A program made the translations under genes and the position numbers. The notes under the pieces were generated by a model. The model did no database searches. It had not been told where the DNA came from and saw only the letters and a program-made list of their open reading frames with translations. Below, piece after piece: positions 4,099-62,942 of a DNA stretch of 63,973 nucleotides. Where the stretch lies: NCBI GenBank assembly GCA_016214285.1, contig JACROV010000012.1, positions 1 through 63,973 of the forward strand, read 5' to 3'. Every line of letters starts with the position of its first letter. The first letter of the stretch is position 1. Source of the stretch: Candidatus Omnitrophota bacterium (GTDB lineage Bacteria > Omnitrophota > Gorgyraeia > Zapsychrales > Zapsychraceae).

Positions 4099-5319
4099 TT
4101 AAAAAACAACCCTTACCCCCACTTCCACCCAATTCCGGTCATAGCCGCGGGTGTCTATGTTTGAATTTACTTCAGAATATGTATACGCGAGAAACGTTTG
4201 CGCGTTCCTGGTCACCTCATAACTTAATCGCGTGCTTGCCCCTGTTTGCCTGTCGGTAATACCCTGCGCCGCGAAATCCCCCTCTCCAAAAAATACCGAC
4301 GCGGTCATTTTCAGCCGTTCCAGTAATTGCCGGCCCAAACTTAGCGCCACCCGCCATGAATCAAAAATATCAGCCGTAAATGAGCTCGGTGTGCTTGTTT
4401 TGCTATAGGACAAGCTGGCCGAATCTGTTTCATTAAAATCATCGGTCAGGGCAACAGCCGCGCTCGGCTTGGACGCGCTGCTTCCGTCAAAGGCCTCCAC
4501 AAAAGAAACCCCGGCGCGGGTGTCGATATAAAGCTGCGTTGTCAGAGAATGCCTGAAACCCGTTGCCAATGTATGGACGGCTGCCGTACCGCTCTCATCA
4601 ATATGGCGTGTGGTAAAATCATATCCCAGAAGGAAGGCCGTGGCTGAACTTTCTATATAATTCACATCAAAACCAGCGCGGTTCAATAACGAATCCCTTA
4701 TATCCTCTCGCGATGTGCTATAGTTTTCATTGCCGTAATGTCCTTGAATGGAAACGTGCTTGCTCAGATCCCTTGTGTATTCAGCATTGAATGTGTTTCT
4801 GTAGTAGCTGTAACGGCCGGTGGTCCTGCCGAAATCATCTTCAAAGCTGCGCGGCTCTTCGGAATGCACAAATTTGTTTGTGGCAGAAAAGCGGTCATAC
4901 CTGGAAAGTTCTTTTTGGAAATCAATGTTGAGGTCCTGGGAGTTGTTATTGAACGAAGGATTGTCAGCAAATAAATGCCGTGTCAAATTCCCTTCCAGCG
5001 CGAGGGTGTGCGTTTTGCCCTCCTGTTTGGCCCCTAACCCGATCAGCAAATTGGTGACATTGTCGGATTTTTTATCTTCTTTGACAAAGGTCACGTTATC
5101 ATCATAGGCAGTGGAGACAGAACCTTTGACGTCAAGATCAAGCCCGGACGAAGCTGATGCTTTTGGCGGAAAAGCAAGGAACAAACAGCAAAAAGAAAGA
5201 CACGAGTTTAATAAATATATTTTTAGGGTTATGCCTTTGATGAACAGTGCAACAGGATTTCGTGCCCATCGTATGCTGGAAGTGGTAGTCAAGGGCATAA
5301 CCCTATATATTTTTTTCAT
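4099..5319 (-). CDS. EPS-associated outer-membrane beta-barrel protein, with a 30-aa MITE-derived insertion in its signal peptide
   Basis: Probable start MKKIY at 5319, 17 nt after the upstream stop (the ORF-track start at 5628 overlaps the cupin gene). Amphipathic beta strands, YDDNV motif, C-terminal VRVVF. Confidence 0.8.
   Translation of the reverse strand: MKKIYRVMPLTTTSSIRWARNPVALFIKGITLKIYLLNSCLSFCCLFLAFPPKASASSGLDLDVKGSVSTAYDDNVTFVKEDKKSDNVTNLLIGLGAKQEGKTHTLALEGNLTRHLFADNPSFNNNSQDLNIDFQKELSRYDRFSATNKFVHSEEPRSFEDDFGRTTGRYSYYRNTFNAEYTRDLSKHVSIQGHYGNENYSTSREDIRDSLLNRAGFDVNYIESSATAFLLGYDFTTRHIDESGTAAVHTLATGFRHSLTTQLYIDTRAGVSFVEAFDGSSASKPSAAVALTDDFNETDSASLSYSKTSTPSSFTADIFDSWRVALSLGRQLLERLKMTASVFFGEGDFAAQGITDRQTGASTRLSYEVTRNAQTFLAYTYSEVNSNIDTRGYDRNWVEVGVRVVF
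5224..5305. mobile_element. MITE-A copy 1: 82 bp, 17-bp imperfect TIR, 8-bp TSD TATATTTT
   Basis: TAGGGTTATGCCTTTGA...TCAAGGGCATAACCCTA. Flanks 5216-5223 and 5306-5313 are identical. Identical to copy 2 at 8842-8923. Confidence 0.95.
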
Positions 5320-8739: not shown

Positions 8740-9165
8740 TTAGAAAGAAGTGGAAAGTATGACGTGGGTGGTCGCAAACTTTTCCTGTTTGGTCTTCGGC
8801 TTGATAATAATTTCGACATCCCGGTCCAAAGAATTCAACAATAGGGTTATGCCTTTGATGAACAGTGCAACAGGATTTCGTGCCCATCGTATGCTGGAAG
8901 TGGTAGTCAAGGGCATAACCCTATTCAACAATTCAAAAAGATGATCCAGAGAGAACATGCTGAGTTTGCCGTTCATAAGGCAGGAAACTTTGGGTTGAGG
9001 AATATCAAGTAATTCTGAAGCGGCTTTTTGGGTCAAACCACGATTTTTGATAATTTCTGCTACGCGGGACATAATCTGAGCGCGTGCCATAACTCTTTCA
9101 GGATGGGCAACCCCGATATCGACAAAAATATTATCACTTCCTCGATGGGCTTTTTCTTTATTCAT
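8740..9165 (-). CDS. XRE-family HTH antitoxin (HigA-like), with a 30-aa in-frame MITE insertion
   Basis: GSDNIFVDIG, LTQKAASELLDIPQPKVSCLMNGKLSMFSLDHL. Removing 90 nt restores LFELLNSLDRDVEIIIKP. Confidence 0.85.
   Translation of the reverse strand: MNKEKAHRGSDNIFVDIGVAHPERVMARAQIMSRVAEIIKNRGLTQKAASELLDIPQPKVSCLMNGKLSMFSLDHLFELLNRVMPLTTTSSIRWARNPVALFIKGITLLLNSLDRDVEIIIKPKTKQEKFATTHVILSTSF
8842..8923. mobile_element. MITE-A copy 2: 82 bp, 8-bp TSD TTCAACAA
   Basis: Identical to 5224-5305. Flanks 8834-8841 and 8924-8931 are identical to each other and differ from the copy-1 flanks. Confidence 0.95.
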
Positions 9166-9359
9166 GATTTGTTCACCTCATTTATAATTCCGGCCCCTCC
9201 GGCCCCTTTTAACGGCCTGGCAGTTGCCGGCTTTTGACCTCTCTGAACCTCAAAGAGCGCAAACCCCACATCCTGCCTTACTTCTTCAGGAAGCTCCTTA
9301 AGATTTTCCCTGGATGAGCCAATCCAACTTAATGGCTTTAATGCTTGTTCTTCGTTCAT
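9162..9359 (-). pseudogene. Truncated RelE/HigB-like (Gp49-type) toxin
   Basis: KPLSWIGSSRENLKELPEEVRQDVGFALFEVQRG..PLKG.GGAG matches the N-terminal half of the family. Only 65 aa; the usual YR..Y and VLHAFQKK half is absent. Overlaps the antitoxin start (ATGA). Confidence 0.75.
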
Positions 9360-19673: not shown

Positions 19674-19866
19674 GAAACAAGGTACAAATAAAATTCAAAT
19701 CCCAAGCACCAAACTACAAACAATTTACAAATTCCAATGACCAAAATTATCAAATCTGATGATAGTTAAAAATATTTGTCATTTGGATTTAGGTATTGTG
19801 TATTGTTTGTGATTTGGAATTTGTTTATTGGATATTCTTTGGTTATTGTTTCCTGGTAATTGGGAT
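19665..19866. repeat. Heptamer-periodic inverted repeat H2 (CAAA/TTTG type)
   Basis: ..ttcaaa tcccaag caccaaa ctacaaa.. paired with ..tttgtga tttggaa tttgttt attggat.. Confidence 0.8.
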
Positions 19867-20308: not shown

Positions 20309-20369
20309 ATCTTTTGTGTATAACCTAGAATTGCAAAATTGTCAATCTTTCACTGGAAGAAGCCTGCTT

Positions 20370-20503
20370 TAAATCCGAAGCACGAAATCCGAAATACGAA
20401 ACAAATAAAAAATTCAAAATCTAAAATATAAAACAACCTGTTTTGATATTTGAATTTAAAGTTTTGGATTTGTTTCGTGCTTCGATATTCGGATTTCGAA
20501 TTT
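20370..20503. repeat. Heptamer-periodic inverted repeat H3 (CGAA/TTCG type)
   Basis: aaatccgaagcacgaaatccgaaatacgaaacaaat ... atttgtttcgtgcttcgatattcggatttcgaattt. Confidence 0.85.
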
Positions 20504-22626
20504 TAATCTGTTTCTATCAATTTCTTAATTTCCGGCAGGGCTTTGCGGGCGGCGTCTTCTCCGCGCTTGATGAGTTCATCGACCTTGTAGAGTTCGAACC
20601 AGTTGATGCCAACCAGGTCCGGATGGATGATGACATCCGCCTGCTGGGCGCTTTGTTCCGCCAGCACGTATTCAGTGGCCTGAAGGGTGCGCACGATAAT
20701 ATCCGAGATATTGTGTTTGAACGGCCCCAATAACACGCGCAGGATGCGGAATCCCAGAAATCGAAACGGCGCCCTCCGGAAGGGTAATCGTTCTTTTTTG
20801 AGCTCAGTATCTTTTTCCAGGGCGAAACTCGCGGAGACGTCGTGGGGGGATTGCAGCACGTTGACGGCAATGATCTTTTTGATGTTCCGGCTGGTTAAAA
20901 TGTTCGTCGGCAAGGGATTAAGGACACCCCCGTCGATGATCAAACGGTCTTTTTCGCGGATGGGTTCGATGACGCCGGGGATCGCGATGCTTTTGCGGAT
21001 GGCGTTGACCAGTGAACCGGATTCCATAACAAGCTCTTCCCTGCGGATCAGATCATAGGCGATGATCTTCAGCGGTATCCGGGTGCTGTAAAATGTCCGG
21101 CCGCCGAAATTCTTGCGCAGCCAGTATTTGATGGCCCGCCCCCCCATGAGCCCCGAGATGGGGACAACCGGGTCAAAGAGCGCCCACAAATTCCTTTTCT
21201 TCTCAAAATCCCGGGCGATCTTCTCGATCTCGGCCGCGTCTTTACCGATCGCCCAAAGGCTGGCAATGATGGCTCCCATGCTGCTGCCCACAATAATATC
21301 GACGGGGATGTGCTCTTTCTCCAGGACGCGCAAGACCCCGATATGGGCGAGACCTAAGGCCGCCCCTCCCCCCAACGCTAACCCGACCGAAACTCCTCCG
21401 ATTTCCCGCGCGATGCGGGTGATGGTTTTGGTGTATTCGCTGTGCGGTTCCGATTGGAGAAAAGATAAATGCTGTGAACCCTCGCGTTGCGTAAGTTCCG
21501 ATGGCTGCAAGGTCGGCAGCGCGGCGTAAACATGATAGTCGAGGTGTTTGTTGATCTCTTCGAACGACAGATAGATCTTTTCCTCAACGGCCCGGACGAT
21601 GACCCTGGTTTGCTCCTCGCGGAATTTATCCTGCAGGGCGGTTTCTAACCGGTCAATGACTTTGCGGATAGATTCCATGTCTCTGGTCCGGTCGCAGGTG
21701 ATCAGGTGCACCGAATCCGATTGGGTCAGCGTTTCTAAAACGATATCGTCCATTTCATTGGGCAGATCGACCACCACGTAATGGTAATCGCCGACAAAGG
21801 CGCTGACAAAAAGACCGATGTGTTTTTTAAGGGCCGTGTCCTTGGGGTCAAAGGAAACGTTAAGAAGATCAACGGGCAGATCCTTTTTGATGACATGGTC
21901 GAGGATTTTCCCGTGGTCATCGATGATCTGCGCGAGGCCGATCGGCGGGCTCTTCCAGCGGCCAAAGGCTCCTCCCCCGCGGGGGACCTCTGGCTGCGGG
22001 GAGGGAGAACTTCCCGCGCTTTGCGCGTTACCTTCCTTCCGGTCAGGGTGGATATTAATGAAGATAACGTTCTTGCCGGTCTCTTTGCGGATGCTCAGCG
22101 CCAGGTTAATGGCGTAGGTCGAAGAGCCCGTGCCGGTGACAGGGCTGTACACGGCGATGACCGTGCTTTCAAAGACGGACCCGGTCGTGTCATGGATCTT
22201 CCGGCGGATGCGCCGCGAAAGGCTTTGGCTCAAGCGCAATCCCAGCTGCGGGATGGAGTTGAGGATCTCATGAAAGTCCGCCTTCGATATCTTAAGGACG
22301 ATCGAGTCATTGAGGGCCTCGAAATTCATCGAATGGTTTTCGCCGGTCAGGATTGAAACGATCCCGAAGTGCATGCCGCGGTGGATGAAATCAATGTCTT
22401 CTTTTTTGGCGCGCAGGCTGCTGCTGTAGGCCAGCAGGCGTCCGGAGATCAGGCAGTAGAAAAAATCCGGCGGCCCCCCCTGCGGGCAGACGATGTCGCC
22501 TTTTTTGTATTCGACGATGACGGCCTTGCGGGCGATGTGGTGGAGCTCCATCCAGCTTAATCCCGTGAAAATGGGGATCTGGCGTACCAGGTGGAAGCGG
22601 TTGATGAGAGAAGACAAGTTGTTCAT
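20503..22626 (-). CDS. cNMP-binding domain + MinD/CpaE-like domain + patatin-like phospholipase
   Basis: cNMP fold (FYCLISG, GMHFG), degenerate P-loop SPVTGTGSST, patatin motifs GGGAALG, GSSMG and DGG. Confidence 0.85.
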   Translation of the reverse strand: MNNLSSLINRFHLVRQIPIFTGLSWMELHHIARKAVIVEYKKGDIVCPQGGPPDFFYCLISGRLLAYSSSLRAKKEDIDFIHRGMHFGIVSILTGENHSMNFEALNDSIVLKISKADFHEILNSIPQLGLRLSQSLSRRIRRKIHDTTGSVFESTVIAVYSPVTGTGSSTYAINLALSIRKETGKNVIFINIHPDRKEGNAQSAGSSPSPQPEVPRGGGAFGRWKSPPIGLAQIIDDHGKILDHVIKKDLPVDLLNVSFDPKDTALKKHIGLFVSAFVGDYHYVVVDLPNEMDDIVLETLTQSDSVHLITCDRTRDMESIRKVIDRLETALQDKFREEQTRVIVRAVEEKIYLSFEEINKHLDYHVYAALPTLQPSELTQREGSQHLSFLQSEPHSEYTKTITRIAREIGGVSVGLALGGGAALGLAHIGVLRVLEKEHIPVDIIVGSSMGAIIASLWAIGKDAAEIEKIARDFEKKRNLWALFDPVVPISGLMGGRAIKYWLRKNFGGRTFYSTRIPLKIIAYDLIRREELVMESGSLVNAIRKSIAIPGVIEPIREKDRLIIDGGVLNPLPTNILTSRNIKKIIAVNVLQSPHDVSASFALEKDTELKKERLPFRRAPFRFLGFRILRVLLGPFKHNISDIIVRTLQATEYVLAEQSAQQADVIIHPDLVGINWFELYKVDELIKRGEDAARKALPEIKKLIETD

Positions 22627-23527: not shown

Positions 23528-23650
23528 TTTAGAATTCGAAGCACGAAATTCGAAATCCGAAACAATATCTAAATTCTAAACGCTCAGTTTAGGATATTAG
23601 AATTTAGAATTTTAGGTTTGTTTCGTGCTTCGTGCTTCGAATTTCGTGTT
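23528..23650. repeat. Heptamer-periodic inverted repeat H5 (CGAA/TTCG type)
   Basis: ttcgaagcacgaaattcgaaatccgaaac ... gtttcgtgcttcgtgcttcgaatttcg. Confidence 0.85.
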
Positions 23651-23659
23651 TATATGTCT

Positions 23660-24835
23660 TTATGTCCGAAACGGCATCCGGCGTTCCTGTATGGGCAAAA
23701 CGAAACTGAAGGTCGTTCCCTTGCCCAGAGTTGATTCCACCGCGATCTTTCCTCCATGCCGGAGAATGATCTCTTTACAAATGGCCAGCCCGAGCCCCGT
23801 GCCGCCTTTTTCATTCTTTTCCGCGGATTCGAGCTGCTGGAACTTTTGGAAAAGTTTTGGGAAATCCTGCTCGGCGATGCCCTTGCCCGTATCGGTGATG
23901 TTGACGATGATATGGTTGTTGGCGGGTTTGTTTTCGGTTTTGATGGTAATACCGCCGTGTTGTGTGAATTTGATCGCGTTACTGACAAGATTGTTTAACA
24001 CTTGAATGATGCGATCCTTGTCAAAAGGTACCTGGGACAGATCTTTGTCCAACTCGGCCTTAAGATATAATCCCCGGCTTTTGGCAACGTCTTGCTGGGC
24101 GTAAACGACTTCGTCAATGACCTCATTGATCCCCTGGATCTTGAAGTCCATTTGCATCTTTCCGGACTCGATCTTGGTCAGATCCAGGATGTCGGAGACC
24201 AGCCGCTGGAGATGCTCCACGCTTTTCTGCGCGCGGCCCAGGACTTCCTCCTGTTCGTGGTTGATCTCGCCGGCCATCCGCTTGCAGACCAGGTCGATCG
24301 CGATCTTGATGGAGGCCAGCGGTGTACGCAGTTCATGTGATACGGTCGAGGTGAACTCCCTCTGCAGCTTGTACATGTCGACAAGTTTTTTATTGGAGAT
24401 CTCCAGTTCATCCTGACGCCGTTTGGTCTCCGCGAACAATCCCTTGTTTTCCTCGACCAGGTCATAATGGGCGATCGCCTGGCGTACCGTGGCCAGCAGT
24501 TCCGTCGTTTTCCAGGGCTTGCTGATAAAGCGGTAGATCTCCCCCTGGTTGATGGCCTCTTCCACCATGGGAAAATCGGCATAGCCGGTAAAAAGGATAC
24601 GGACGACATCCGGGTGATTCATCTTGACCTCTTGCAGGAATTTTACGCCCAGCATGACCGGCATGCGGTGATCACAGATAACGACTTTGATGTTTTCCTG
24701 GTTGAGTATTTTGCGGGCGTGTTCGATGTCTATTGTCGCCGCAACGCCGTAATGTTCCTTGATGAACAGCCGCTGAATACCGTCAATAATGCTTTCTTCG
24801 TCATCGACAAACAATGCCTGGTTTTCCTTGTTCAC
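23660..24835 (-). CDS. Hybrid histidine kinase (N-terminal receiver + HisKA + HATPase)
   Basis: FVDDE, ICDHRMP, ISKPW, SHELRTPL, NLVSNAIKF, DTGKGI and GTGLGLAIC. Confidence 0.92.
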   Translation of the reverse strand: MNKENQALFVDDEESIIDGIQRLFIKEHYGVAATIDIEHARKILNQENIKVVICDHRMPVMLGVKFLQEVKMNHPDVVRILFTGYADFPMVEEAINQGEIYRFISKPWKTTELLATVRQAIAHYDLVEENKGLFAETKRRQDELEISNKKLVDMYKLQREFTSTVSHELRTPLASIKIAIDLVCKRMAGEINHEQEEVLGRAQKSVEHLQRLVSDILDLTKIESGKMQMDFKIQGINEVIDEVVYAQQDVAKSRGLYLKAELDKDLSQVPFDKDRIIQVLNNLVSNAIKFTQHGGITIKTENKPANNHIIVNITDTGKGIAEQDFPKLFQKFQQLESAEKNEKGGTGLGLAICKEIILRHGGKIAVESTLGKGTTFSFVLPIQERRMPFRT

Positions 24836-27597
24836 GAGCCTTTTCCCTTTTCTTTGTTGATCGGCAGCATGACGGTAAAGGTCGCCCCTTCCCCGATCTT
24901 CGACTGCACGGTCATACGTCCGTTATGTTTTTTGATGATCTCATAGCTGATGCTTAACCCCAGGCCCGTCCCCTGGCCAGTGGGTTTTGTCGTAAAGAAC
25001 GGGTCGAATATTTTATTCAAAATTTCCGGAGGGATCCCCTTGCCGGTATCGCGCACGTCGACGCACACGAATCCGTCCTGCGTGTAGGTCTTGATCGCGA
25101 TGGTGCCCGACCCTTCAATGGCGTGCAGGGCGTTGACGATCAGATTGATGAACACCTGTCCCAGCCGCTGGGGGCTGCACTCGATGATCGGCGTGTCGCC
25201 GTATTTTTTTTCCAGCTTGGCCTTGTATTTGATTTCGTTCTGGACGATCGTGAGGATACTTTCAATGACCTCTTCGATCTTGACGCGTTCCAGTATGTTC
25301 TTATCCTCGCGCGAGAAGGCACGCAAGTCCGTGACTATTTTCTGGATGCGGTCGATACCGTTACGGTTATGCTGTAATAACTTGCTCGTGTCGCCGATGA
25401 TATAATCCATGTTGATCTCTTCCTTAAGTTTGTTTATTTCTTCAACGATGGATTTCGCTTTTGTCAAATCTTCCTGCTCAACGCTTTCCTTGAGATGGTC
25501 AGCCATCTTGAGGACTTTGGCATAATCGGCTATGTATTGCTCCAGTATTTCCATGTTACTGCTGATAAATCCCACGGGATTGTTGATCTCGTGCGCCACC
25601 CCGGCGGCCAGCTGGCCGACAGAGGCCAGTTTCTCCGACTGCACAAGCTGGTTTTGCGTGGTTTTGAGCGCCTCATAGGTGGTGCTGAGGTCCTGGAATG
25701 TCTGGCGCAGGATCCTTTCCTTGTCGGCAACTTCTTTATACGCTTCACGCAGCTCATTCTCCCGGGTTTTGCGTTCGGTGATGTCGCGAATTGTGACGAT
25801 GATGATGTTTTCCATGGCGGTTTTGACGGTCCCTAGACTGATCTCAATCGGAATTTCCCTGCCGTCTTTGGTCATGCCGAAAAGGTTTCCCCCCTCCCCC
25901 ATGGGCCTGGTCCTGGCCTCTTTGGAAAAATCCTGACACTGCCGGACATGCCGGGATTTCAGATGCTCCGGCAGGAAGATTTCCGAAGTTTGCCCCAGCA
26001 ATTCCGCGCGGTTGTAGCCGAACATTTTTTCGGCCTGTGTATTGACGAGTGTTATTTCCCGTTTGTCGTTGACGATGAGCAGCGCGTCCGGAGCGCCTTC
26101 GAGAATTGCTTCGAGTTTTTTTTGGGAAGATTTGCGTTCGGTGATGTCGCGGATAAAGGCGTTAAATTGCCGTTCTTCATTGGTGACGGTAGACCAAACG
26201 GTGATTTCAACGGGAAACTCATGGCCTTCACGGTGCAACGCGGGCAGTTCCAGCGTTTTCCCGATGATCGGCCCCTCACCGGTTTCCAGGAAATGCTTTA
26301 ATCCTTTGAGATGGGCTTCACGGTATTGAGGAGGGATGATCGTCTTTTCCAGCGATTTTCCAAGGGCCTGCGCACGCGTCCACCCGAATACGCGCTCTGC
26401 CGCCTGATTCCAGTCTCTGAGGACCCCTTGCTGGTCCATGGAAACAAAGGCGTCATTCGCGGTCGCGATAATGCTTTCAAAGTATGTTTTCGAGACAGTC
26501 GTTTTCCGCAGATCTTCGGTCATGGCATTAAAGGCCTTGGCCACTTGCCCGAATTCATCTTTTGAGTTAATGGCAACTCTTGTTTGAAAATCGCCCCGGG
26601 CCACTTTTTCAACCGCCTCCGCGATGGTTACTAAGGGCGTTGTCAGCTTGCGGGAGGCGAGCATGGACAAGATGATAACAATCAAAGCAACTATTAATCC
26701 GCCGGCAAACGTAATGACCCTTAGCCGTTCGACGGCGGCAAAGGCCATGTCCGTGTTCGAAAGGACAAACCCAAACCAGCCCAGGTCTGGAAAATCAGTA
26801 TGCCCTCTCGCGTAATCATAGCCGATTAAAGATTCCACGCCATGTTCATTCTTTTCGATCAGATAACCTTCATGTTTCTGGCTGGCCAACAAGGCCGACC
26901 GCAGGCCTTCTTTAATGAGGTTAACCTTAAAAACATCATTTTGCTCAAATTCAGGCGCGGCAATAACAAGCCCGTCATTGCGCGCCAACATAAAATGGTT
27001 GCCCTTGTTCCCTCCTTTTTCTTCTTCCGCGGATAACCGCGTATCCCTCGAGAGCGTCTGTGCCTTCCATCCGGCCAGAAGGACCCCCAAGACCTTGTCT
27101 TTCTCGAACTCCGCTTTAATGGGAAAAGAAAAGGTTATCTCCCAGGCCTTGCTTATGTCGCTGTAATGGACATCGCTTGACTGGGCCTTGTCCGTTTTTG
27201 TATAATTAAAAAACTCTGTGCCCCTGAAGTCTTTTTCCAGCATCTCTGGCAGGGTTGAGGCGACAACCACGCCTTTGGGATTTATAACGCTAATGTGGGT
27301 AAAATCCCGGGTTTCTTTGCTTATGTCCATTAAAAACGATTGTATCGTCGCGTCCATGTCGCCGGTGAAAACCTCCTGCATAATGGACATCTGTGACCAG
27401 TGTTTGACAGTCTTATAAACATCCCCAAAGTTCTGTTCGGCGTTCTCTATCCGCGCGCGGGCCAACTGTTGAAAAGTTGAGCCTAAATTCTTTTTTATCG
27501 CCTGCTGGCCATTTTCATACGCGAATTTCCCCATGCCCATCAAGGGGACCAGAGAAAGGCACAGGAATAACAGGGTATTTTTAGTCCTGATTTTCAT
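24832..27597 (-). CDS. Membrane sensor kinase (Cache-like, HAMP, 2x PAS, NtrB-type kinase)
   Basis: Two TMs, [52 protein letters not shown] and DPFFTTK. Confidence 0.92.
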
Positions 27598-29303: not shown

Positions 29304-31943
29304 TCAGATCTCCTTCTCTTGTCGCGTGTAATCCATCTGGATGGGCAGCATGACGGTAAAGGTCGCCCCTTCCCCTGCCTTTGACCGCACCGTTATGTCC
29401 CCGCCATGTTTTTTGACGATCTCATAACTGACGCTTAACCCCAGGCCGGTCCCCTGCCCCACGGGTTTTGTCGTAAAGAACGGGTCGAATATTTTATTCA
29501 AAATTTCCGGAGGAATCCCCTTGCCGGTATCGCGCACGTCGACGCACACGAATCCGTCCTGCGTGTAGGTCTTGATCGCGATGGTGCCGGTCCCTTCAAT
29601 GGCGTGCAGTGCGTTGACGATCAGATTGATGAACACCTGTCCCAGCCGCCGGGGGCTGCACTCGATGAGCGGCGTGTCGCCGTAATCTTTTTCCAGCTCG
29701 GCCTTGTATTTGATCTCGCTGTGGACGATCGCGAGGATGCCCTCGATGACATCTTCGATCTTGACATGTTCCATCTCATTTTTGTCTTCCCGGGCGAAGG
29801 TGCGCAGGTCCATGACAATCTTCTGGATACGCCCGATCCCTTTGCGGTTGTGCTCCAGCAATTTGGGAGTGTCGCTGATGATATAATCCAGGTTAATCTC
29901 TTTTTTCGTTTTGGTAATTTCTTCAGCGACGGTTTTTGCTTCCGCCAAATCCCCCTGGATAACACTTTCCTTGAGATGGTCCGTCATTTTCAGGATTTTG
30001 GCATAATCGGCTATGTATTGCTCCAGTATTTCCATGTTATTGTTGATGAACCCAACCGGGTTATTGATCTCGTGCGCGACTCCGGCGGCCAGGTGTCCGA
30101 TAGAGGCCAGTTTCTCGGACTGGACGAGCTGGTTCTGCGTCTCCTTAAGTCTGTCATGGGTATTGTTGAGATCATTGAACGTCTGGCGAAGGGCTTTTTC
30201 TCTTTCCGCGAGTTCTTTATGCGCGTTGGTCAACTCATCCTCCTTCGCTTTGCGCTGTGTGACGTCGCGGACGAAAGCGTGGAATTGGTGTTTCTCGTCG
30301 ACGCGCGTGCACCAGATGGTGATTTCGATGGGGAACTCATGGCCGTCACGGTGCAGCGCGGAAAGTTCCAGTGTCTTTTCGAGCACCACGCTTTCGCCGG
30401 TAACAAGGAAATGTTTCAGCCCTGCCGTGTGTCTCGCGCGGTATTGCTCGGGGATGATTATTCCCGTGAGTTGTTTCCCGATGACCTCCCGGCGGGGCCA
30501 TCCGAAGATGCGTTCCGCCGCGGGGTTCCATTCCACGATGGAATTGTTCTCATCAATGGAGACGAAGATGTCGTTCGAGGTTGTGAGGATGCTTTCAAAG
30601 TAGCTTTTGGAGACGGACGTTTCCCTGAGATTTTCAATCAATTCATGAAAACTTCGCGCGAAGTCTCCGATCTCGTTTTTCAGTCCCCGGAGTCCAGGGC
30701 CGATGTCGAAATTCGGGTCCCGGGGTGAGAATTTTTTTATGCGGTCCAGCGCGGTTTTTAAAGGGGTGGTAACGTTATGGAACATGTAGATCCCCGCGGC
30801 GATGACAAGAGCAGACCCGAGCGTGACTAAAACCGGCGCCAGAGCGATAAGGGTATCGGTGGATATCAATCCCACGAATTCGAAATATTCAACGGCGGCG
30901 TGAACCGTCATGCCGGAAAAAAGTCCGCATCCCAGGAAGATCAGCCCTCTTCGCAATAGCCGGGACCCTGATGCCAGAAGAAAAATAATGAAGGTCATTA
31001 TGCCCGCGGTCGCCACCGCGACAAGGTTCAAAATGGCGGAGCGGACTTTTTCCCTGACGCTCCCCGAATATATTATCAGTTCCTGCGCGATATAGTCCCC
31101 GACCTCTTTGAGGGCGTCGATTTTCTCTGTGGCCATCTTGAACCAGAACGAAGGGTCCACGTCCCACGGCCCTTGCGCGTTTCTAAAGGCGAGGCCCCGC
31201 ATCTTCTCAATTTCGTCCATAAACGGTCTTCGCATTTTGCGGGAGTAATAATCCTTCTGGCCGGGGGACGCGTAGGACAGAAAATTCTCGACGAAGATGT
31301 CCTGGGCGGTTGCCGCCGCCTGGGCCGTCCGGAGACCCCACGGATCGGAGGTGTTTTTGATGAAAAGGCTGTAGAGTGCCGCCCGTTCCAGGCCGGCGTT
31401 TTCCTTGACATAGAGCAGGTTCAGGTAAGCGGTCAGGGATGGAAAGAATTCGCTCTTTGTCATCAAGGGCGGGATGCGGGAAATGATCCGCAGGAGGGAA
31501 TCGTTCAGCCGCGAGTAGTAGTCAAGGGTTTGTCGCGCGGAAAAATTCGCGGTATCGACCGACTGTCTTACGCCTTCGAGGCCGGCCATGTTCTTCCACA
31601 CGGTGTTGATGGCCCCGGTCAATTCAGCGTCGGCAATCGCTTTCTTGTTCCGGGACAGGTAATCCGTCATTTCCCCGGCCGCCGTGTCCGTTTTACCTCT
31701 TTGCTTTTTCAGTTCCGCGTGGAGGACGTCGCCCCCCCCCGCCACGAAACCGACGGATTTCCCTCTTTCGGATTGTAATTCATGTATCAGGGAACCCGTC
31801 TTGACGGCGAATTCACATAATTGCCGCAGGGAAGCCGCCTGGCGCGCGATGTGGATCTGTCCCGCGATGATATAGGCCAGGAACAAAAACAGCCCGATCA
31901 GGGGGATCGCGGACACCATGATAAATTTGCGGAGTGTTTTCAT
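29304..31943 (-). CDS. NIT (nitrate/nitrite-sensing) domain histidine kinase with HAMP and PAS
   Basis: [12 protein letters not shown] and [12 protein letters not shown] motifs, [27 protein letters not shown]. Confidence 0.88.
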
Positions 31944-40127: not shown

Positions 40128-40270
40128 GTTTAAATCCCAATAAACAAATCTCAAACCACAAACAATTCACAAATCCTAATGACCAAAATTACAAATAATT
40201 GTTTCGGTCATTTGAATTTCGGTGTTGGGTATTGTTTGTAATTTGGGATTTGTGATTTGGTTATTCAGCA
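40128..40270. repeat. Heptamer-periodic inverted repeat H9 (CAAA/TTTG type)
   Basis: tcccaa taaacaa atctcaa accacaa ... ttgtttg taatttg ggatttg tgatttg. Confidence 0.8.
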
Positions 40271-48114: not shown

Positions 48115-48215
48115 AATGCTAAAATTTTTAATCCAAATGTTCAAAACAGATTGTTTAATGCTTTAGATTTTGAGTTTTTTATTTGTTTCGTATTTCGTAT
48201 TTCGTGCTTCGAATT
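48115..48215. repeat. Partial heptamer repeat H11 (mainly the TTCG arm)
   Basis: atttgtttcgtatttcgtatttcgtgcttcgaattt, matching the right arms of H3, H5 and H14. Confidence 0.75.
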
Positions 48216-48221
48216 TAACCG

Positions 48222-49043
48222 TCATTTAAGCTGTTCCAACGCTTTGTTCAATTGTTCCGCGTTAGGGGCTTTGCCGTGCCACTTGTGGTCGCCTTCCATA
48301 AAGGAAACGCCTTTGCCCTTGATGGTGTGGGCGATGATGACCGAAGGCCGATCCCGCGCGTCGGCCGCCTCATCCAGCGCCTTAAAAAGTTGCTGAAAGT
48401 CGTGCCCGTCGACTTCGATCGCGTGCCAGCCGAAACCGCGCCATTTTTCGATCAGCGGCTCGAGATTTTTGATGGTATTGACCGGGCCGTTCTCCTGGAC
48501 TTTGTTGTAATCCACGATGGCGCAGACGCGATCAAGCTTGTAATGGGCGCCGGCCATGGCCGCCTCCCAGATAGAGCCTTCCTGGAGTTCCCCGTCCCCT
48601 AAAAGACAGTATGCCTGAAAATTTTTATTCAGCAGCCGCGCGCCGAGGGCGATGCCGTTGGCGACGGATAAGCCATGTCCGAGAGAACCGGTGTTGAATT
48701 CCACCCCGGGAACTTTATTGTGGACGTGGCCCTGCAAACGGCTGTTCATTTTTCGAAATGTCTGCAATTCTTCTTTAGGGAAATACCCGCAATCGGCCAG
48801 GACAACATACACTCCGGGAGTGATGTGGCCTTTGGAGACGATCAAGCGGTCTCTGTCCTCCCATTTGGGGTCTTTGGGACGGTGATTCATTTTGTAGTGA
48901 TAGAGGCTTAAGAGGATCTCCACCGCGGAAAGGGAGCCGCCGGGATGTCCGGAGCCGGCGCGGTGAAGCGTTTCCAAGATCTCCCGGCGGATCAGGACCG
49001 CTTTCGCGCGCAGGACCTGGATATTGATATTTTTCGTGGACAT
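48222..49043 (-). CDS. Transketolase, N-terminal (TPP-binding) subunit
   Basis: GHPGGSLS, SKGH, LQGH, GSLGHG and GDGELQEG. Confidence 0.95.
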   Translation of the reverse strand: MSTKNINIQVLRAKAVLIRREILETLHRAGSGHPGGSLSAVEILLSLYHYKMNHRPKDPKWEDRDRLIVSKGHITPGVYVVLADCGYFPKEELQTFRKMNSRLQGHVHNKVPGVEFNTGSLGHGLSVANGIALGARLLNKNFQAYCLLGDGELQEGSIWEAAMAGAHYKLDRVCAIVDYNKVQENGPVNTIKNLEPLIEKWRGFGWHAIEVDGHDFQQLFKALDEAADARDRPSVIIAHTIKGKGVSFMEGDHKWHGKAPNAEQLNKALEQLK

Positions 49044-52314: not shown

Positions 52315-52468
52315 ATATTTCAAATCCCAAGCACCAAATTACAAACAATAGACAATCCCAAAATAACAATGACCAAAACATTGTTGCCTTCATCGAGGTT
52401 TAGGATTTTGGTAATTAGGTATTGTAATTTGTTTGTGGTTTGGAATTTGTTTATTGGAATATTTACCA
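52315..52468. repeat. Heptamer-periodic inverted repeat H13 (CAAA/TTTG type)
   Basis: ttcaaa tcccaag caccaaa ttacaaa ... tttgttt gtggttt ggaattt gtttatt gg; arms similar to H2. Confidence 0.85.
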
Positions 52469-54244: not shown

Positions 54245-54410
54245 TTTAAAATCCGAAGCACGAATATCGTCAGCCAGAGGCTGATCCGCATTAGGCGGAA
54301 AATCCGAAACAAATCCAAAATTTTAAATCCAAAGCGATAAACGTTTACGTATTTGAATTTTTGATTTAGATATTGTTTCGTATTTCGCGCTTCGTATTTC
54401 GTGCTTCAGA
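54245..54410. repeat. Heptamer inverted repeat H14 (CGAA type) with a nested 30-bp GC-rich cassette at 54270-54299
   Basis: aaatccgaagcacgaatatcg[tcagccagaggctgatccgcattaggcgga]aaatccgaaacaaat ... gtttcgtatttcgcgcttcgtatttcgtgcttc. Confidence 0.85.
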
Positions 54411-54412
54411 CT

Positions 54413-55519
54413 TCAGGATTTTAAAGAGTCGTTTTTATAGAATGTTCTTGAGCTTATTATCGCTAAATTTCTTGTATTGTCATCACCAAAATAAATTTTT
54501 TGCCCCGTACTCGCCATGGTGATGGGAAGAAAGCCGAGCCCGATCCCGCGCTGGCAATGCGGCGAGAAAGTTCCGCTGGTGACGACACCGATCGCTTCGC
54601 CGGTCGGCGCGTAAATTTTATTGTCCTGGCGTGGCGCGCGGCGGGTCTCGGAAATGAATCCGGCAATCTTGCGGCGCGGGCCGCCCTCCTTCTGTTGTTT
54701 TAGGAGAGCGTCTTTCCCGATAAAATCTTTGGTAAAGTCGACGAACCGCGCCAGGCCCGCTTCGAGCGGTGTCGTCGTTTCATTTATTTCATGTCCATAT
54801 AAACTGTACCCGACTTCAAGGCGCAGCATATCCCTCGCCCCCAGACCCGCGGGTTTGATGTTCGGGTTCTGTAGCAATTTCCGCCAGATGGCCGTTACCG
54901 TTTTGGAGGACGAATAAATTTCGTAGCCGAGTTCACCGGTATATCCGGTGCGGCTCACGCGCACCGTTTCCCCGAGAAGGTTAAAGCTGTCAAAAGTGTA
55001 ATAGGCAAGTTTTTCAATGCCGGGAGTTAAATCGGCAAAGATTTGTCGCGATAACGGCCCCTGGACATCGATCTTTCCGATCGCGGAAGAAACGTCTTCG
55101 AAGGCCTGTGGCTGTTTGAGGCGCGCGCGGAAATGCCGCGCGTCTTTGACGGTTGTGGCGCCGTTAACCACAATAAACCATTCCTCTCGTCCTTCGCGAA
55201 AGATGACCAGATCGTCAATGACACCACCGTGATCATTGAGCAGCATCCCGTAACGGCACGTATGGGCTGGCATGTCGGCGATCGACATGGTCACGAGCGC
55301 GTCCAGACCTGATTCACGGCAGTCGCCGTGGATCAGAAATTCTCCCATATGGCACGTGTCAAAAAGCGTGACGGCCTTGCGGGTGTGTTCGTATTCGGCG
55401 AGGATCCCCTCGTACTGCACGGGCATTTCCCATCCGCCGAACGGGACAATACGCGCCTTGAGGGCGGCGTGTTCGCTGTAGAGCGGGGTTTGTTTGAGTG
55501 TTTCTTGAGTCGCGGTCAT
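54413..55519 (-). CDS. gcvT: Aminomethyltransferase (glycine cleavage T protein)
   Basis: LFDTCHMG, SRTGYTGELGYE and GLGARDMLRLEVG. Confidence 0.96.
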   Translation of the reverse strand: MTATQETLKQTPLYSEHAALKARIVPFGGWEMPVQYEGILAEYEHTRKAVTLFDTCHMGEFLIHGDCRESGLDALVTMSIADMPAHTCRYGMLLNDHGGVIDDLVIFREGREEWFIVVNGATTVKDARHFRARLKQPQAFEDVSSAIGKIDVQGPLSRQIFADLTPGIEKLAYYTFDSFNLLGETVRVSRTGYTGELGYEIYSSSKTVTAIWRKLLQNPNIKPAGLGARDMLRLEVGYSLYGHEINETTTPLEAGLARFVDFTKDFIGKDALLKQQKEGGPRRKIAGFISETRRAPRQDNKIYAPTGEAIGVVTSGTFSPHCQRGIGLGFLPITMASTGQKIYFGDDNTRNLAIISSRTFYKNDSLKS

Positions 55520-60857: not shown

Positions 60858-61958
60858 TTATTTCCCGTTCTGCCACAGCCGCGCCAGACCGGCGTCGAGG
60901 AGTTCCTGGTTCAAATAATTTCCGGCTTGCGCGACCTTCGTGGGGCCGCTGAAATCTATGGTAACCCCTGCTCGCCCTCCCTGGGCTCGCGGGGTGCTCG
61001 CGGCTTCTCTGGATTGTGGAAGCCGCGGAGCATAAAAGACATCCGCCAGGTAGCGATCATATTTGTCGGTGGTGTCCTTGTGGGTCTTGACGACGATAAA
61101 ATCGAGGCCGTTGAGGCGCTCTTCCACGAAACGTTTCGCGCGTTTGCCTTCGGGCGTATTGATCTCGGGACAGTCGATGCCCCGCAGGCGGAACTTTTGC
61201 GTGAGGAACATCCGGAAATTCAGATGGACCCGGGCGATCAAAGTGTCGCCGTCGATGATCTTTTTGACCCCGGCCTTGTAGGTGAACAATTGTTCTTTGG
61301 GGACGAGGGCCGTTTTGAAAAAGCGGTCGTCGCGGACCTGGACACAGGCGTCTTTTTGAAGACGCATCCTTTTGATCTGCGCGAATCCCCAATGCAGCCG
61401 GAACCCCATGTCGACCAGCAGGTCTTTCTCTCCCTCGTCTTCAACCAGCGCGAAGGTGTTCACCCGCCCGCGGACAACGGTTAATTGAGGGATTTCCTTT
61501 TCCGCGTCTTTTTTGTCGTCACGTGTTTCTGCTGTGGCGGCCTGGATCGTCGTCATCTTATCCTTAAGTTCATCGACACTCCATCCTTTGAGGATGGCTT
61601 GATGTTCCAGTTGTTTACGTTGTTTCTCATCTTTAACCGTCATCAAATGCAAGAAATGGCTCCAGGGCAATTGCGTCAACCTTGACGCAATTGGGTAAGT
61701 CCGGTACAACTGGACGGTGCGTTCCAGCGTCCTTTTATTTAATGAAACTACAGGAACAAGCTGTTCATAAACGTGATCGCCGTACTGGGCCCGGCCTTTG
61801 TTTTTCAAGATCTCCCGGTTGACCCAGCGCCCGATGCGCCAGTAGCCAAGGGTCACCCGGCCTTTGACGTCCAGTTCCATGTTCCGGATTTCCCGTTTGA
61901 TGTCGGCGGCCAACTTTGAAATACTGCCTGGGGTGAGGAGGCTTTTCTTCATCATCAA
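60858..61958 (-). CDS. DUF1016 N-terminal-like domain fused to a thermonuclease (SNase) domain
   Basis: YWRIGR, QYG..V, LPWSHFLHL and WSVDEL (YhcG-N); IIDGDT, RLRGIDCPE, DKYDRYLA and NQELL..GLA (SNase). Confidence 0.8.
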   Translation of the reverse strand: MMMKKSLLTPGSISKLAADIKREIRNMELDVKGRVTLGYWRIGRWVNREILKNKGRAQYGDHVYEQLVPVVSLNKRTLERTVQLYRTYPIASRLTQLPWSHFLHLMTVKDEKQRKQLEHQAILKGWSVDELKDKMTTIQAATAETRDDKKDAEKEIPQLTVVRGRVNTFALVEDEGEKDLLVDMGFRLHWGFAQIKRMRLQKDACVQVRDDRFFKTALVPKEQLFTYKAGVKKIIDGDTLIARVHLNFRMFLTQKFRLRGIDCPEINTPEGKRAKRFVEERLNGLDFIVVKTHKDTTDKYDRYLADVFYAPRLPQSREAASTPRAQGGRAGVTIDFSGPTKVAQAGNYLNQELLDAGLARLWQNGK

Positions 61959-61985
61959 TTCCCCTTCTGGTTAGAGGTCGTGAAC

Positions 61986-62411
61986 TTAATCATCTGCTTT
62001 TCGTAACACGGCCAACAATTCCGTGGTCGAATAGACCGTTACAGTTATTTGTTTCTTCATGCCCTTATCATTTGACCAGACGGCGGCCTCGAGCTTTAAC
62101 GCCAGCGCCAGGTAAGGGGCGTCTTGTCGGTGCGAGGCCAGCGCCAGGGCTTTTGCCATGGCAGGCTGATATGATGTTTCAGGGAAGACCCGGATTCGTT
62201 GCGTCAACAGCAGGAATAGCGCTTCTATTTCTTTGGAGGGTAACCCGATCCGTTTTCTGATTGACGCGCTGGTCCGTAGATGGCGCCGCGTCTCCGAAAG
62301 CAGATGCTCGGGAGCGGCCAGGTCAAGCCTTGAATCCAGCAGAAGTTCCCTCGTGAGAGCTTCTTTCAGGAAAGCGGCCAGCAGGATGTTGGCGTCAACG
62401 ACAAGTTGCAA
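61986..62411 (-). CDS. vapC: PIN-domain (VapC-like) toxin
   Basis: VVDANIL, DAPYLALAL and WSNDK; TTG start coupled to the antitoxin stop. Confidence 0.9.
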   Translation of the reverse strand: MQLVVDANILLAAFLKEALTRELLLDSRLDLAAPEHLLSETRRHLRTSASIRKRIGLPSKEIEALFLLLTQRIRVFPETSYQPAMAKALALASHRQDAPYLALALKLEAAVWSNDKGMKKQITVTVYSTTELLAVLRKADD

Positions 62412-62413
62412 GG

Positions 62414-62638
62414 TCAGCCCGCCTTGTGTTTTTTTGATACGATTTTTTTGATCTTGGCGGCGTGGGCTCCGATGGAAGCATCGTCGAGCGTGCTGCCCGA
62501 AAGCATTTGGTTCATGCGTTCCAGAAGAAGCATTTTTCCGCGGATGGCCTGGCGGGCGACCTCGGACCAGTTCATCTCCTTGAATTTGTCCATTCTTTCC
62601 TTCAGGTCCACCGGGATTGCGAGCGTCATATTGGGCAT
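62414..62638 (-). CDS. RHH-type (VapB-like) antitoxin, 74 aa
   Basis: MPNMTLAIPVDLKERM...NWSEVARQAI; AAGGAG RBS. The longer ORF-track start lies in a duplicated fragment. Confidence 0.85.
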   Translation of the reverse strand: MPNMTLAIPVDLKERMDKFKEMNWSEVARQAIRGKMLLLERMNQMLSGSTLDDASIGAHAAKIKKIVSKKHKAG

Positions 62639-62663
62639 GGTTTGTATCTCCTTTCCTGCATTA

Positions 62664-62692
62664 AGTATAATATGTGTAAGCACATAATGCAA
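62664..62692 (-). promoter_or_regulatory. Sigma70-type promoter and operator of the vapBC pair
   Basis: Minus strand TTGCAT-17 nt-TATACT; nested palindromes TATGTG/CACATA and TGCATTA/TAATGCA. Confidence 0.7.
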
Positions 62693-62705
62693 GTAATTAT
62701 TCACA

Positions 62706-62808
62706 CAGCGCCCGATGCGCCAGTAGCCAAGGGTCACCCGGCCTTTGACGTCCAGTTCCATATTCCGGATTTCCCGCTTGATGTCGGCGGCCAACTTTGA
62801 AATACTGC
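62706..62808. repeat. 103-bp duplicate of the 5' end of the DUF1016-SNase gene
   Basis: Matches 61825-61927 with 2 mismatches. Confidence 0.9.
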
Positions 62809-62889
62809 TCGGGGAGAGAATGCTTTTCGTTTTCATCGGTTCTTTCTTGAAGCTACTTTATGTTTTTTCGATACATTTTTCTTGATCCC

Positions 62890-62942
62890 GGCGGCGTGGG
62901 CTCCGATGGAAGCATCGTCGAGCGTGCTACCCGAAAGCATTT
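62890..62942. repeat. 53-bp duplicate of the 3' part of the antitoxin gene
   Basis: Matches 62456-62508 with 1 mismatch. Confidence 0.9.

Follow-up and report, generated by a model that had tools for sequence, protein, structure and literature searches.

How does one and the same DNA segment come to lie, in frame, in two unrelated genes of one bacterium? The question is raised by a stretch of 63,973 nucleotides from Candidatus Omnitrophota bacterium (assembly GCA_016214285.1, contig JACROV010000012.1), which is called the window below and is contig C73 in our numbering, and which holds two copies of an 82-bp transposable element of the miniature inverted-repeat kind (MITE), each bounded by terminal inverted repeats (TIRs) and flanked by a target site duplication (TSD). 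On the whole, our analysis points to a MITE derived from an insertion sequence (IS) of the IS1595 type and probably mobilised in trans by 8-bp staggered insertion, a reading to which we give a probability of about 0.85. The two copies occupy the following positions of the window.

5216 to 5223, no strand: left TSD copy of MITE copy 1, TATATTTT, 8 bp, a target that is present once at the syntenic empty site L143
5224 to 5305, plus strand: MITE copy 1, 82 bp, with TIRs at 5224-5240 and 5289-5305 and RVMPLTTTSSIRWARNPVALFIKGITL as its minus-strand frame 1 reading
5306 to 5313, no strand: right TSD copy of MITE copy 1, TATATTTT
8834 to 8841, no strand: left TSD copy of MITE copy 2, TTCAACAA
8842 to 8923, plus strand: MITE copy 2, 82 bp, the same as copy 1, also read in minus-strand frame 1
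8924 to 8931, no strand: right TSD copy of MITE copy 2, TTCAACAA

Both copies have the sequence TAGGGTTATGCCTTTGATGAACAGTGCAACAGGATTTCGTGCCCATCGTATGCTGGAAGTGGTAGTCAAGGGCATAACCCTA with no differences, which begins with TAGGGTTATGCC and finishes with GGCATAACCCTA, and their 17-bp TIRs, TAGGGTTATGCCTTTGA and TAGGGTTATGCCCTTGA, are paired at 16 of 17 positions with one mismatch. As a single-stranded RNA the element is predicted to fold into a hairpin with an 18-bp stem (-36 kcal/mol, z = -5.2 against shuffles); simple scans for a promoter or terminator role flagged nothing within the MITE, where the strong hairpin lacks a T-run of its own. With its 82 bp it carries no transposase gene, and each insertion brings a net gain of 82 + 8 = 90 nt, namely 30 codons. 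Six-frame translation shows that frame 1 alone is without stops, and this on either strand, with the peptides RVMPLMNSATGFRAHRMLEVVVKGITL and RVMPLTTTSSIRWARNPVALFIKGITL, both reading RVMPL...KGITL, whose 27 residues make them the longest frames of the MITE. Frame 0 is stopped by the TAG at positions 1-3 of each TIR, and frame 2 by a TAA within each TIR. Both window copies are located in minus-strand genes and are translated in frame 1. This is in accordance with a previous reading of the window made from its letters only (the sequence-only reading), which had described an identical 82-bp pair with 17-bp imperfect TIRs, differing 8-bp TSDs, a gain of 90 nt and one open frame per strand, with both insertions in the stop-free frame. 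Its remark that a split into 81 + 9 bp also fits has to be given up. That split fits the window copies because a T follows the TSD at 45 of 47 sites, and it is ruled out by the sites without this T, for example C68:56167 (flank TTAAGGAA followed by A), where 8 bp only are duplicated.

We then present an overall view of the family in the source assembly, which comprises 1.82 Mb in 104 contigs with a G+C content of 51% and a completeness of 88%. A mismatch-tolerant scan of the whole assembly, for which a reversed-pattern control gave 0 copies, detects 52 full copies, a number well above what chance would give, 51 of them identical and one with a single substitution. Perfect 8-bp TSDs flank 47 of the 52, the duplicated sequence differing at each, and a 48th matching TSD belongs to the copy on contig C59, whose left flank is clipped by the contig start. 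Besides the full copies there are a truncated relic (C82:16532) and fragments at contig ends; full, truncated and contig-end copies together are spread over 41 contigs. The 47 usable sites, when aligned, give as target an AT-rich palindrome, RAA/TTATATAA/TTY, in which base -1 is A and base +9 is T in 93% of the sites and the TSD ends are strictly A/T. Four copies are without a matching 8-bp TSD (C39:3200, C77:24523, C81:222 and C83:2038). Among them, C39:3200 is compatible with a 6-bp TSD, and the other three are probably due to recombination between copies. C77:24523 has TTTTATTT to its left, and the reverse complement of this, AAATAAAA, flanks C81:222 on the right; this hints at inversion or recombination between these two copies. 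The sequence-only reading had taken the window pair for members of a recently active, non-autonomous multicopy family with clean TSDs, and the 52 copies, far more than the pair itself, with 51 identical and 47 perfect TSDs, well support this view.

It is of great interest to ask which transposase serves a family that has none. When the terminal 12-mer of the MITE was sought outside the full copies, 14 contig ends were found that bear the same 17-25 nt ends and then run into a terminus of an IS1595 transposase. They form two groups, as is typical when a short-read assembler collapses an IS present in many copies: eight of end A, starting TAGGGTTATGCCCTTGATGACCATTAC... (also written TAGGGTTATGCCCTTGATGACC...), and six of end B, starting TAGGGTTATGCCCTTGACTACCACTGCCCC...ATGGAAGACTATCC... 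(also written TAGGGTTATGCCCTTGACTACCACTGCCCC...ATGGAAGAC...). Read inward on the opposite strand, end A encodes ...LLKRWLQGTHQGAPRPSHLSYYLDEFVFRFNRRTS...DIHGGKD and then a stop; it matches the C-terminal 36 positions (118-153) of the Pfam profile DDE_Tnp_IS1595 (PF12762) with 31-32 bits at a cut-off of 27, the rest not being assembled, and gives a partial match to positions 179-215 of NCBIfam NF033547 with 37.9 bits. End B encodes MEDYPKTMLEFKKLFNTEQSCQEYLYKMR (MEDYPKTMLEF...), which aligns at 62% identity (E = 3e-13) with positions 1-29 of an IS1595 transposase of full length; 29 N-terminal residues are assembled here, and the CxxC motifs of Zn_Tnp_IS1595 (PF12760) fall past the contig ends. 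The MITE has about 22 nt in common with the IS at end A and 25 nt at end B, the shared ends being TAGGGTTATGCC(C/T)TTGA, and its central 35 nt or so are unrelated; the MITE targets and the flanks of the IS ends are alike AT-rich. IS1595 had been named among several candidate families by the sequence-only reading, and it is transposase termini of this family that are found, outside the window and at contig ends.

Relatives of the IS help to picture the parent. A scan of species-representative genomes gave 477 relatives of the C-terminal fragment. Related complete ISs measure 1010-1015 bp and end in TAGGG(T/C)TATGCA, and clear 8-bp TSDs at AT-rich sites flank two of the three examined, L060 and L062 (TCAATTTA and ATTTCCAT); the IS of this genome is, from these relatives, probably about 1 kb long. 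The closest relative IS transposase scores 200.8 bits on NF033547 (cut-off 75). A protein search seeded with it gave 120 transposases of about 304 residues, the best of which reach 85-89% identity across the two fragments that are assembled, and none of the 120 is therefore this genome's own transposase. We also observed, beside a heptad-repeat region at one end of contig C24 (C24:20300-21387), a relic of the IS1595 family that is degenerate and frameshifted and has another terminus, TAGGCTTATCCAGTTAAC...; it gives the impression of a dead paralogue, older than the active IS.

The course of events that we propose is as follows. The 82-bp MITE would have been cut down from an IS1595-type IS, whose transposase, with its DDE domain, may work in trans by binding the shared ends; we infer such trans-mobilisation because the ends, the TSD length and the AT-rich targets are all shared. 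The MITE would integrate with an 8-bp staggered cut at the palindromic target, each insertion amounting to 90 nt, and the downstream reading frame would therefore not be shifted. An insertion after codon position 2 (open phase below) would be read without stops in either orientation and would add 27 fixed residues (RVMPL...KGITL) together with 3 duplicated host residues, and in the remaining two phases (closed phase) the TAG or TAA of the TIR would terminate translation. The expansion would be very recent and would have taken place in one Omnitrophota lineage, to at least 52 near-identical copies, from which purifying selection may have removed most truncating insertions, leaving an intragenic remainder enriched for the open phase.

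That the copies arose by insertion, and recently, is seen from both the empty sites and the distribution of the element. For the window porin, an orthologue of 376 residues (P0123), 91% identical, has exactly 30 residues fewer, and at its syntenic locus (L143, with the order hemB-hemL-DUF3568-...-porin) the DNA ATGAAAAAAATATATTTATTGAAC is unbroken. For the second window gene, nearly all of about 120 HTH_37 homologues among the matches listed have 110-112 residues against 141 here, with two longer ones, of which one is a toxin-antitoxin fusion, and the eight closest (80-91% identical outside the insert), when aligned, lack exactly 30 residues. A third empty site comes from the sister species, where the orthologue of a giant open reading frame (ORF) is collinear across site C99:12077. 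The search for the MITE in another 166 genomes of the order gave no copy save one cousin, located in the sister species of the same genus as a single intergenic copy of 85 bp, diverged and with an 8-bp TSD; JGI metagenome contigs gave no matches to the MITE, and among 1.84 billion representative proteins the MITE peptide was met with in ORFs of this genome only. There are moreover an IS end (C59) with a MITE lodged in it, an IS that adjoins the TSD of a MITE (C85) and two MITEs in tandem, 10 bp apart (C44), and these arrangements together with the near-identity of the copies point to a burst that is very recent or ongoing. The claim of the sequence-only reading that excision of 90 nt restores normal proteins thus agrees with the 376-residue porin and the 110-112-residue HTH_37 homologues, which lack exactly those 30 residues; the empty-site orthologues, which it had named as a way to check the idea, turned out in its favour at the porin, HTH_37 and giant-ORF sites.

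The window genes concerned are the following.

4099 to 5319, minus strand: outer-membrane beta-barrel (porin) gene, Pfam BBP2_2 (PF10082, 39.7 bits), 406 residues with the insert and 376 at the empty site
8740 to 9165, minus strand: XRE/HTH_37 antitoxin-type gene with a Pfam match to HTH_37, 141 residues with the insert and 111 without
9162 to 9359, minus strand: Gp49/HigB-type toxin remnant, 65 residues, N-terminal half only (21.7 bits, under the cut-off, for PF05973 positions 2-40 of 90), immediately upstream of the antitoxin

The porin carries its insert after MKKIY and ahead of the signal peptide's hydrophobic core, and the n-region is thereby extended from 5 to 35 residues. A database record of 331 residues (P0125), 100% identical to the window porin, starts past the MITE and has no signal peptide, and 8 of the 10 database ORFs with the MITE peptide begin at an ATG inside the TIR; the MITE systematically misleads gene callers. 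The insert of the HTH_37 protein comes after the final helix of the helix-turn-helix (HTH) domain. Without it the Pfam match runs over the whole profile (1-80 of 80) with 84 bits, and with it the match ends at position 70 of 80 with 74 bits. In an AlphaFold2 model the predicted local distance difference test score (pLDDT) is 75-87 for the HTH core and 42-55 for the insert, with a confident HTH-domain helix at 73-83. The toxin remnant upstream reads directly into the antitoxin start, and the toxin-antitoxin module of the window looks decayed. Since the toxin is an N-terminal remnant only, the antitoxin is probably an orphan under relaxed constraint.

For the other copies, each empty site was rebuilt and all ORFs across it were examined, with Pfam support where available. 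Most copies are non-coding, being intergenic, exactly at stop codons (for example C2:49389, C47:17814 and C82:1331, the TSD often ending in TAA), or on or a few codons upstream of start codons. Five lie on or within 13 codons upstream of a start codon (C21:1693, C37:4914, C62:2225, C67:14711 and C85:15972) and shift by 90 nt whatever ribosome-binding site there is; the TSD of C62:2225 duplicates the ATG of a 604-residue gene whose N-terminus is GTPase-like by eye. The intragenic copies are as follows.

C3:140, open phase: TRASH/YHS protein
C51:3930, open phase: 12,189-residue ORF
C62:4178, open phase: 352-residue ORF, MutY-like by eye, 2 residues ahead of the stop
C73:5224, open phase: porin, within the signal peptide
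C73:8842, open phase: HTH_37 protein
C82:8050, open phase: Gp49 toxin, residue 4
C99:12077 and C99:14048, open phase: one and the same 5,102-residue ORF
C36:42107 and C36:53974, open phase: genes called less securely
C1:14019, closed phase: 15 residues ahead of the stop
C3:10731, closed phase: MR/MLE enzyme, residue 40
C6:4007, closed phase: beginning of a LysM domain
C4:15792 and C91:51294, closed phase: genes called less securely

The curated tally is thus about 10 open against 5 closed, with a p of about 0.02 that is extrapolated from the binomial tails of neighbouring counts and not computed for 10 of 15 itself. A strict automatic coding mask was tallied as well, because gene calling by codon score alone overlooked genuine genes of AT-rich composition, for example the lipoprotein at C36:53974. 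Two ORFs in the list are giants that run off their contigs (C51 1-36478, at least 12,189 residues, with one MITE; C99 2-15218, at least 5,102 residues, with two). The sister species has an open frame of 11,970 residues at the orthologous place of a giant ORF, and giant genes are documented in Omnitrophota (bioRxiv 10.1101/2023.11.21.568195). All three giant-ORF copies are in open phase, and their inserts lie outside all Pfam domain matches, one of them between a cytidylyltransferase-like and a PRK/uridine-kinase domain.

What the excess of open phases means has to be weighed with care. When the target matrix is run over DNA that is confidently coding, 29-37% of target-like sites fall in the open phase; this disposes of the idea that the excess is an artefact of an AT-rich target often ending in TAA, as the motif by itself brings no bias. 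The coding share of the target potential is 28-38%, from which about 10-13 closed-phase insertions are expected, and 5-6 are observed. Purifying selection against truncating insertions is the simplest account of the excess, and we lean towards it with modest confidence; the excess would then reflect a filter by selection and not any function of the peptide, and the interrupted proteins would presumably be made and tolerated. Several observations weigh against the picture as a whole. The strict mask retains 8 sites, 5 open and 3 closed, with p = 0.11, and at least three real genes hold truncating insertions (the MR/MLE enzyme at residue 40, the LysM protein and a 151-residue protein). The interior of the IS, moreover, is missing from the genome assembly, and JGI metagenome contigs, scanned for it by exact pattern, also gave nothing, so that an intact, active transposase gene in this genome is presumed from assembled ends whose interior is unassembled. 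It could be, then, that there is no phase bias, the intragenic copies being a random sample of the three phases and the excess arising from small-number noise and subjective gene calling. The strict tally fits this explanation, as do several open cases that lie 2-5 residues or less from one end of their gene (the MutY-like ORF, the Gp49 toxin and the porin signal peptide), a place at which all phases are perhaps tolerated. It sits badly with the curated 10 of 15 against the expected 29-37%, with the shortfall of closed insertions and with three open cases of three in the giant ORFs (0.35 cubed, about 0.04), and we regard it as possible and on the unlikely side. The bias itself is probable, and with 52 copies it is not proven. 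For the check named by the sequence-only reading, whether coding insertions favour one frame, the excess of the open phase is suggestive in the curated and the strict count alike.

A further explanation places the adaptation in the element, in the manner of a "stealth MITE": a net length of 3n and a frame 1 open on both strands would have been selected for life in coding sequence and would help the family persist in a small, gene-dense genome. In its strongest form, selection on the element itself would have made a "translation-proof" family that colonises coding sequence, including giant genes of 5,000-12,000 residues, without killing the host gene. The gain of 90 nt with two open frames and the three open giant-ORF insertions agree with such a history, and so does the sister-species cousin, which with another interior and length again gives a multiple of three (85 + 8 = 93 nt) and has an open plus-strand frame in the ORF list and a minus-strand frame that, by eye, also appears open, hinting at conservation of the property. 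However, both frames are open in 16-27% of interior shuffles with the TIRs fixed, which, multiplied by 1/3 for the 3n length, leaves a probability of about 5-9% by chance; the cousin is not independent, sharing common ancestry at its ends, and is a single intergenic copy; and most copies in this genome are non-coding. A search for derivatives of 64-94 bp in 18 genomes with related ISs found none, so that there is no independent sample for the 3n rule. We consider adaptation of the element improbable in either form. That the element can hide in coding sequence was the view of the sequence-only reading; that it is built for hiding is not established, in view of the 5-9% probability by chance. 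There is finally the suspicion that the repeat is a chimera made by the assembler, which might be raised by a fragmented metagenome-assembled genome of 104 contigs and by copies that are suspiciously identical. This has hardly any probability in our view: every copy's own 8-bp duplication fits one palindromic motif, the orthologous empty sites match exactly, and reads are longer than the 82-bp repeat, the contigs being broken by the longer IS and not by the MITE. We therefore keep to the mobilisation of an IS1595-derived MITE, with selection against truncation as the preferred account of its phases.

The window contains other repeats as well. Intergenic inverted-repeat families of about 7-nt units (AATCCGAAGCACGAAAT-like and CAAACAAT-like; D2-D4 and I1-I11) are unrelated to the MITE, and the longer direct repeats, with 73-91% identity, look like paralogous gene segments.

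19698-19857, 20369-20518, 23533-23666, 40133-40261, 48122-48231, 52321-52460 and 54352-54413: inverted repeats of about 7-nt units
24859-25158 and 29340-29639: direct repeat of 300 nt, 4.5 kb apart
26435-26532 and 30553-30650: direct repeat of 98 nt, 4.1 kb apart
61819-62942: direct-repeat pairs of 143 and 85 nt, near the window end

Compared with known systems, the family resembles the prokaryotic MITEs derived from DDE ISs (Correia/NEMIS and Nezha; PMC10969869, PMC3184786) in being short, without a transposase, equipped with the TIRs of a resident IS and present in many copies, with a variable TSD of fixed length, a strong hairpin, mostly intergenic sites and occasional in-frame fusions. It differs from them in the IS1595-family parent, the 8-bp TSD and the Omnitrophota host, and further in its unusually young age (51 of 52 copies identical), the exact gain of 30 codons and the translatability of both orientations. 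With the IS1595 family (ISs of about 1 kb with TAGGG(T/C)TATGC ends) it shares the terminal sequence, the 8-bp TSD and the AT-rich targets, and the transposase termini are 62-89% identical to database members; unlike these, the window element is non-autonomous, and the autonomous copy is seen as 14 contig ends only. Elements of the REP/BIME kind, imperfect palindromes of 20-40 bp without TSDs that depend on a RAYT transposase similar to IS200/IS605, were considered and rejected, the element here having 82 bp, TIRs, 8-bp TSDs and a DDE partner of IS1595 type.

There is also a likeness to the Rickettsia palindromic elements (RPEs). To our knowledge, RPEs have no recognised cognate transposase and no clean TSDs, whereas perfect TSDs and an identifiable mobilising IS are present here. 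As described in PMC10969869 (after Ogata et al. 2000, 2002), RPEs are likewise palindromic, lie in frame in unrelated genes and add a conserved peptide to proteins that apparently remain intact; according to the same text they are about 150 bp long, old and diverged, against 82 bp and near-identity here. In some RPE families about half of the copies are intragenic, against about 15 of 52 here. The likeness is one of analogy, and size, TSDs, parent IS and host phylum set our family apart from the RPE descriptions. A 2024 review of prokaryotic MITEs holds it "not unusual" for intragenic MITEs to be fused in frame with host ORFs, with RPEs as the extreme case (PMC10969869), and such fusions are thus less exotic than the sequence-only reading implied. 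QMITE1 and QMITE2 of Coxiella burnetii (PMC5896051) also reach about 50 copies per genome, QMITE2 with direct repeats of 7-11 nt, and insert at the 3' ends of and inside ORFs, some in frame and some as in-frame C-terminal extensions; they are 150-400 bp long, diverged and assigned no parent IS in that report, against 82 bp, a defined IS1595 parent and a target motif here. On these grounds we regard the family as a clear new instance of a phenomenon already known, one that reveals no new mechanism, and as distinctive for its IS1595 parent, its 30-codon gain, its two-way translatability, the extreme youth of its burst and its survival inside giant genes.

Omnitrophota, as far as we know, have no cultured representatives and very small genomes. 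In such a phylum our analysis finds an unusually clean and very young MITE burst with a defined parent, a target motif and perfect TSDs. There is a practical side to this, in that gene callers are misled by the MITE and the assembly is broken by the parent IS at no fewer than 14 contig ends. The copies also amount to a natural experiment on the tolerance of 30-residue in-frame inserts, placed in a signal peptide, in a DNA-binding domain, in a metal-binding TRASH/YHS domain and in the inter-domain regions of giant multi-enzyme proteins. If the element should prove to be translation-proof, it would represent a bacterial transposon strategy convergent on that of the Rickettsia RPEs, and one for which the mobilising enzyme is identified.

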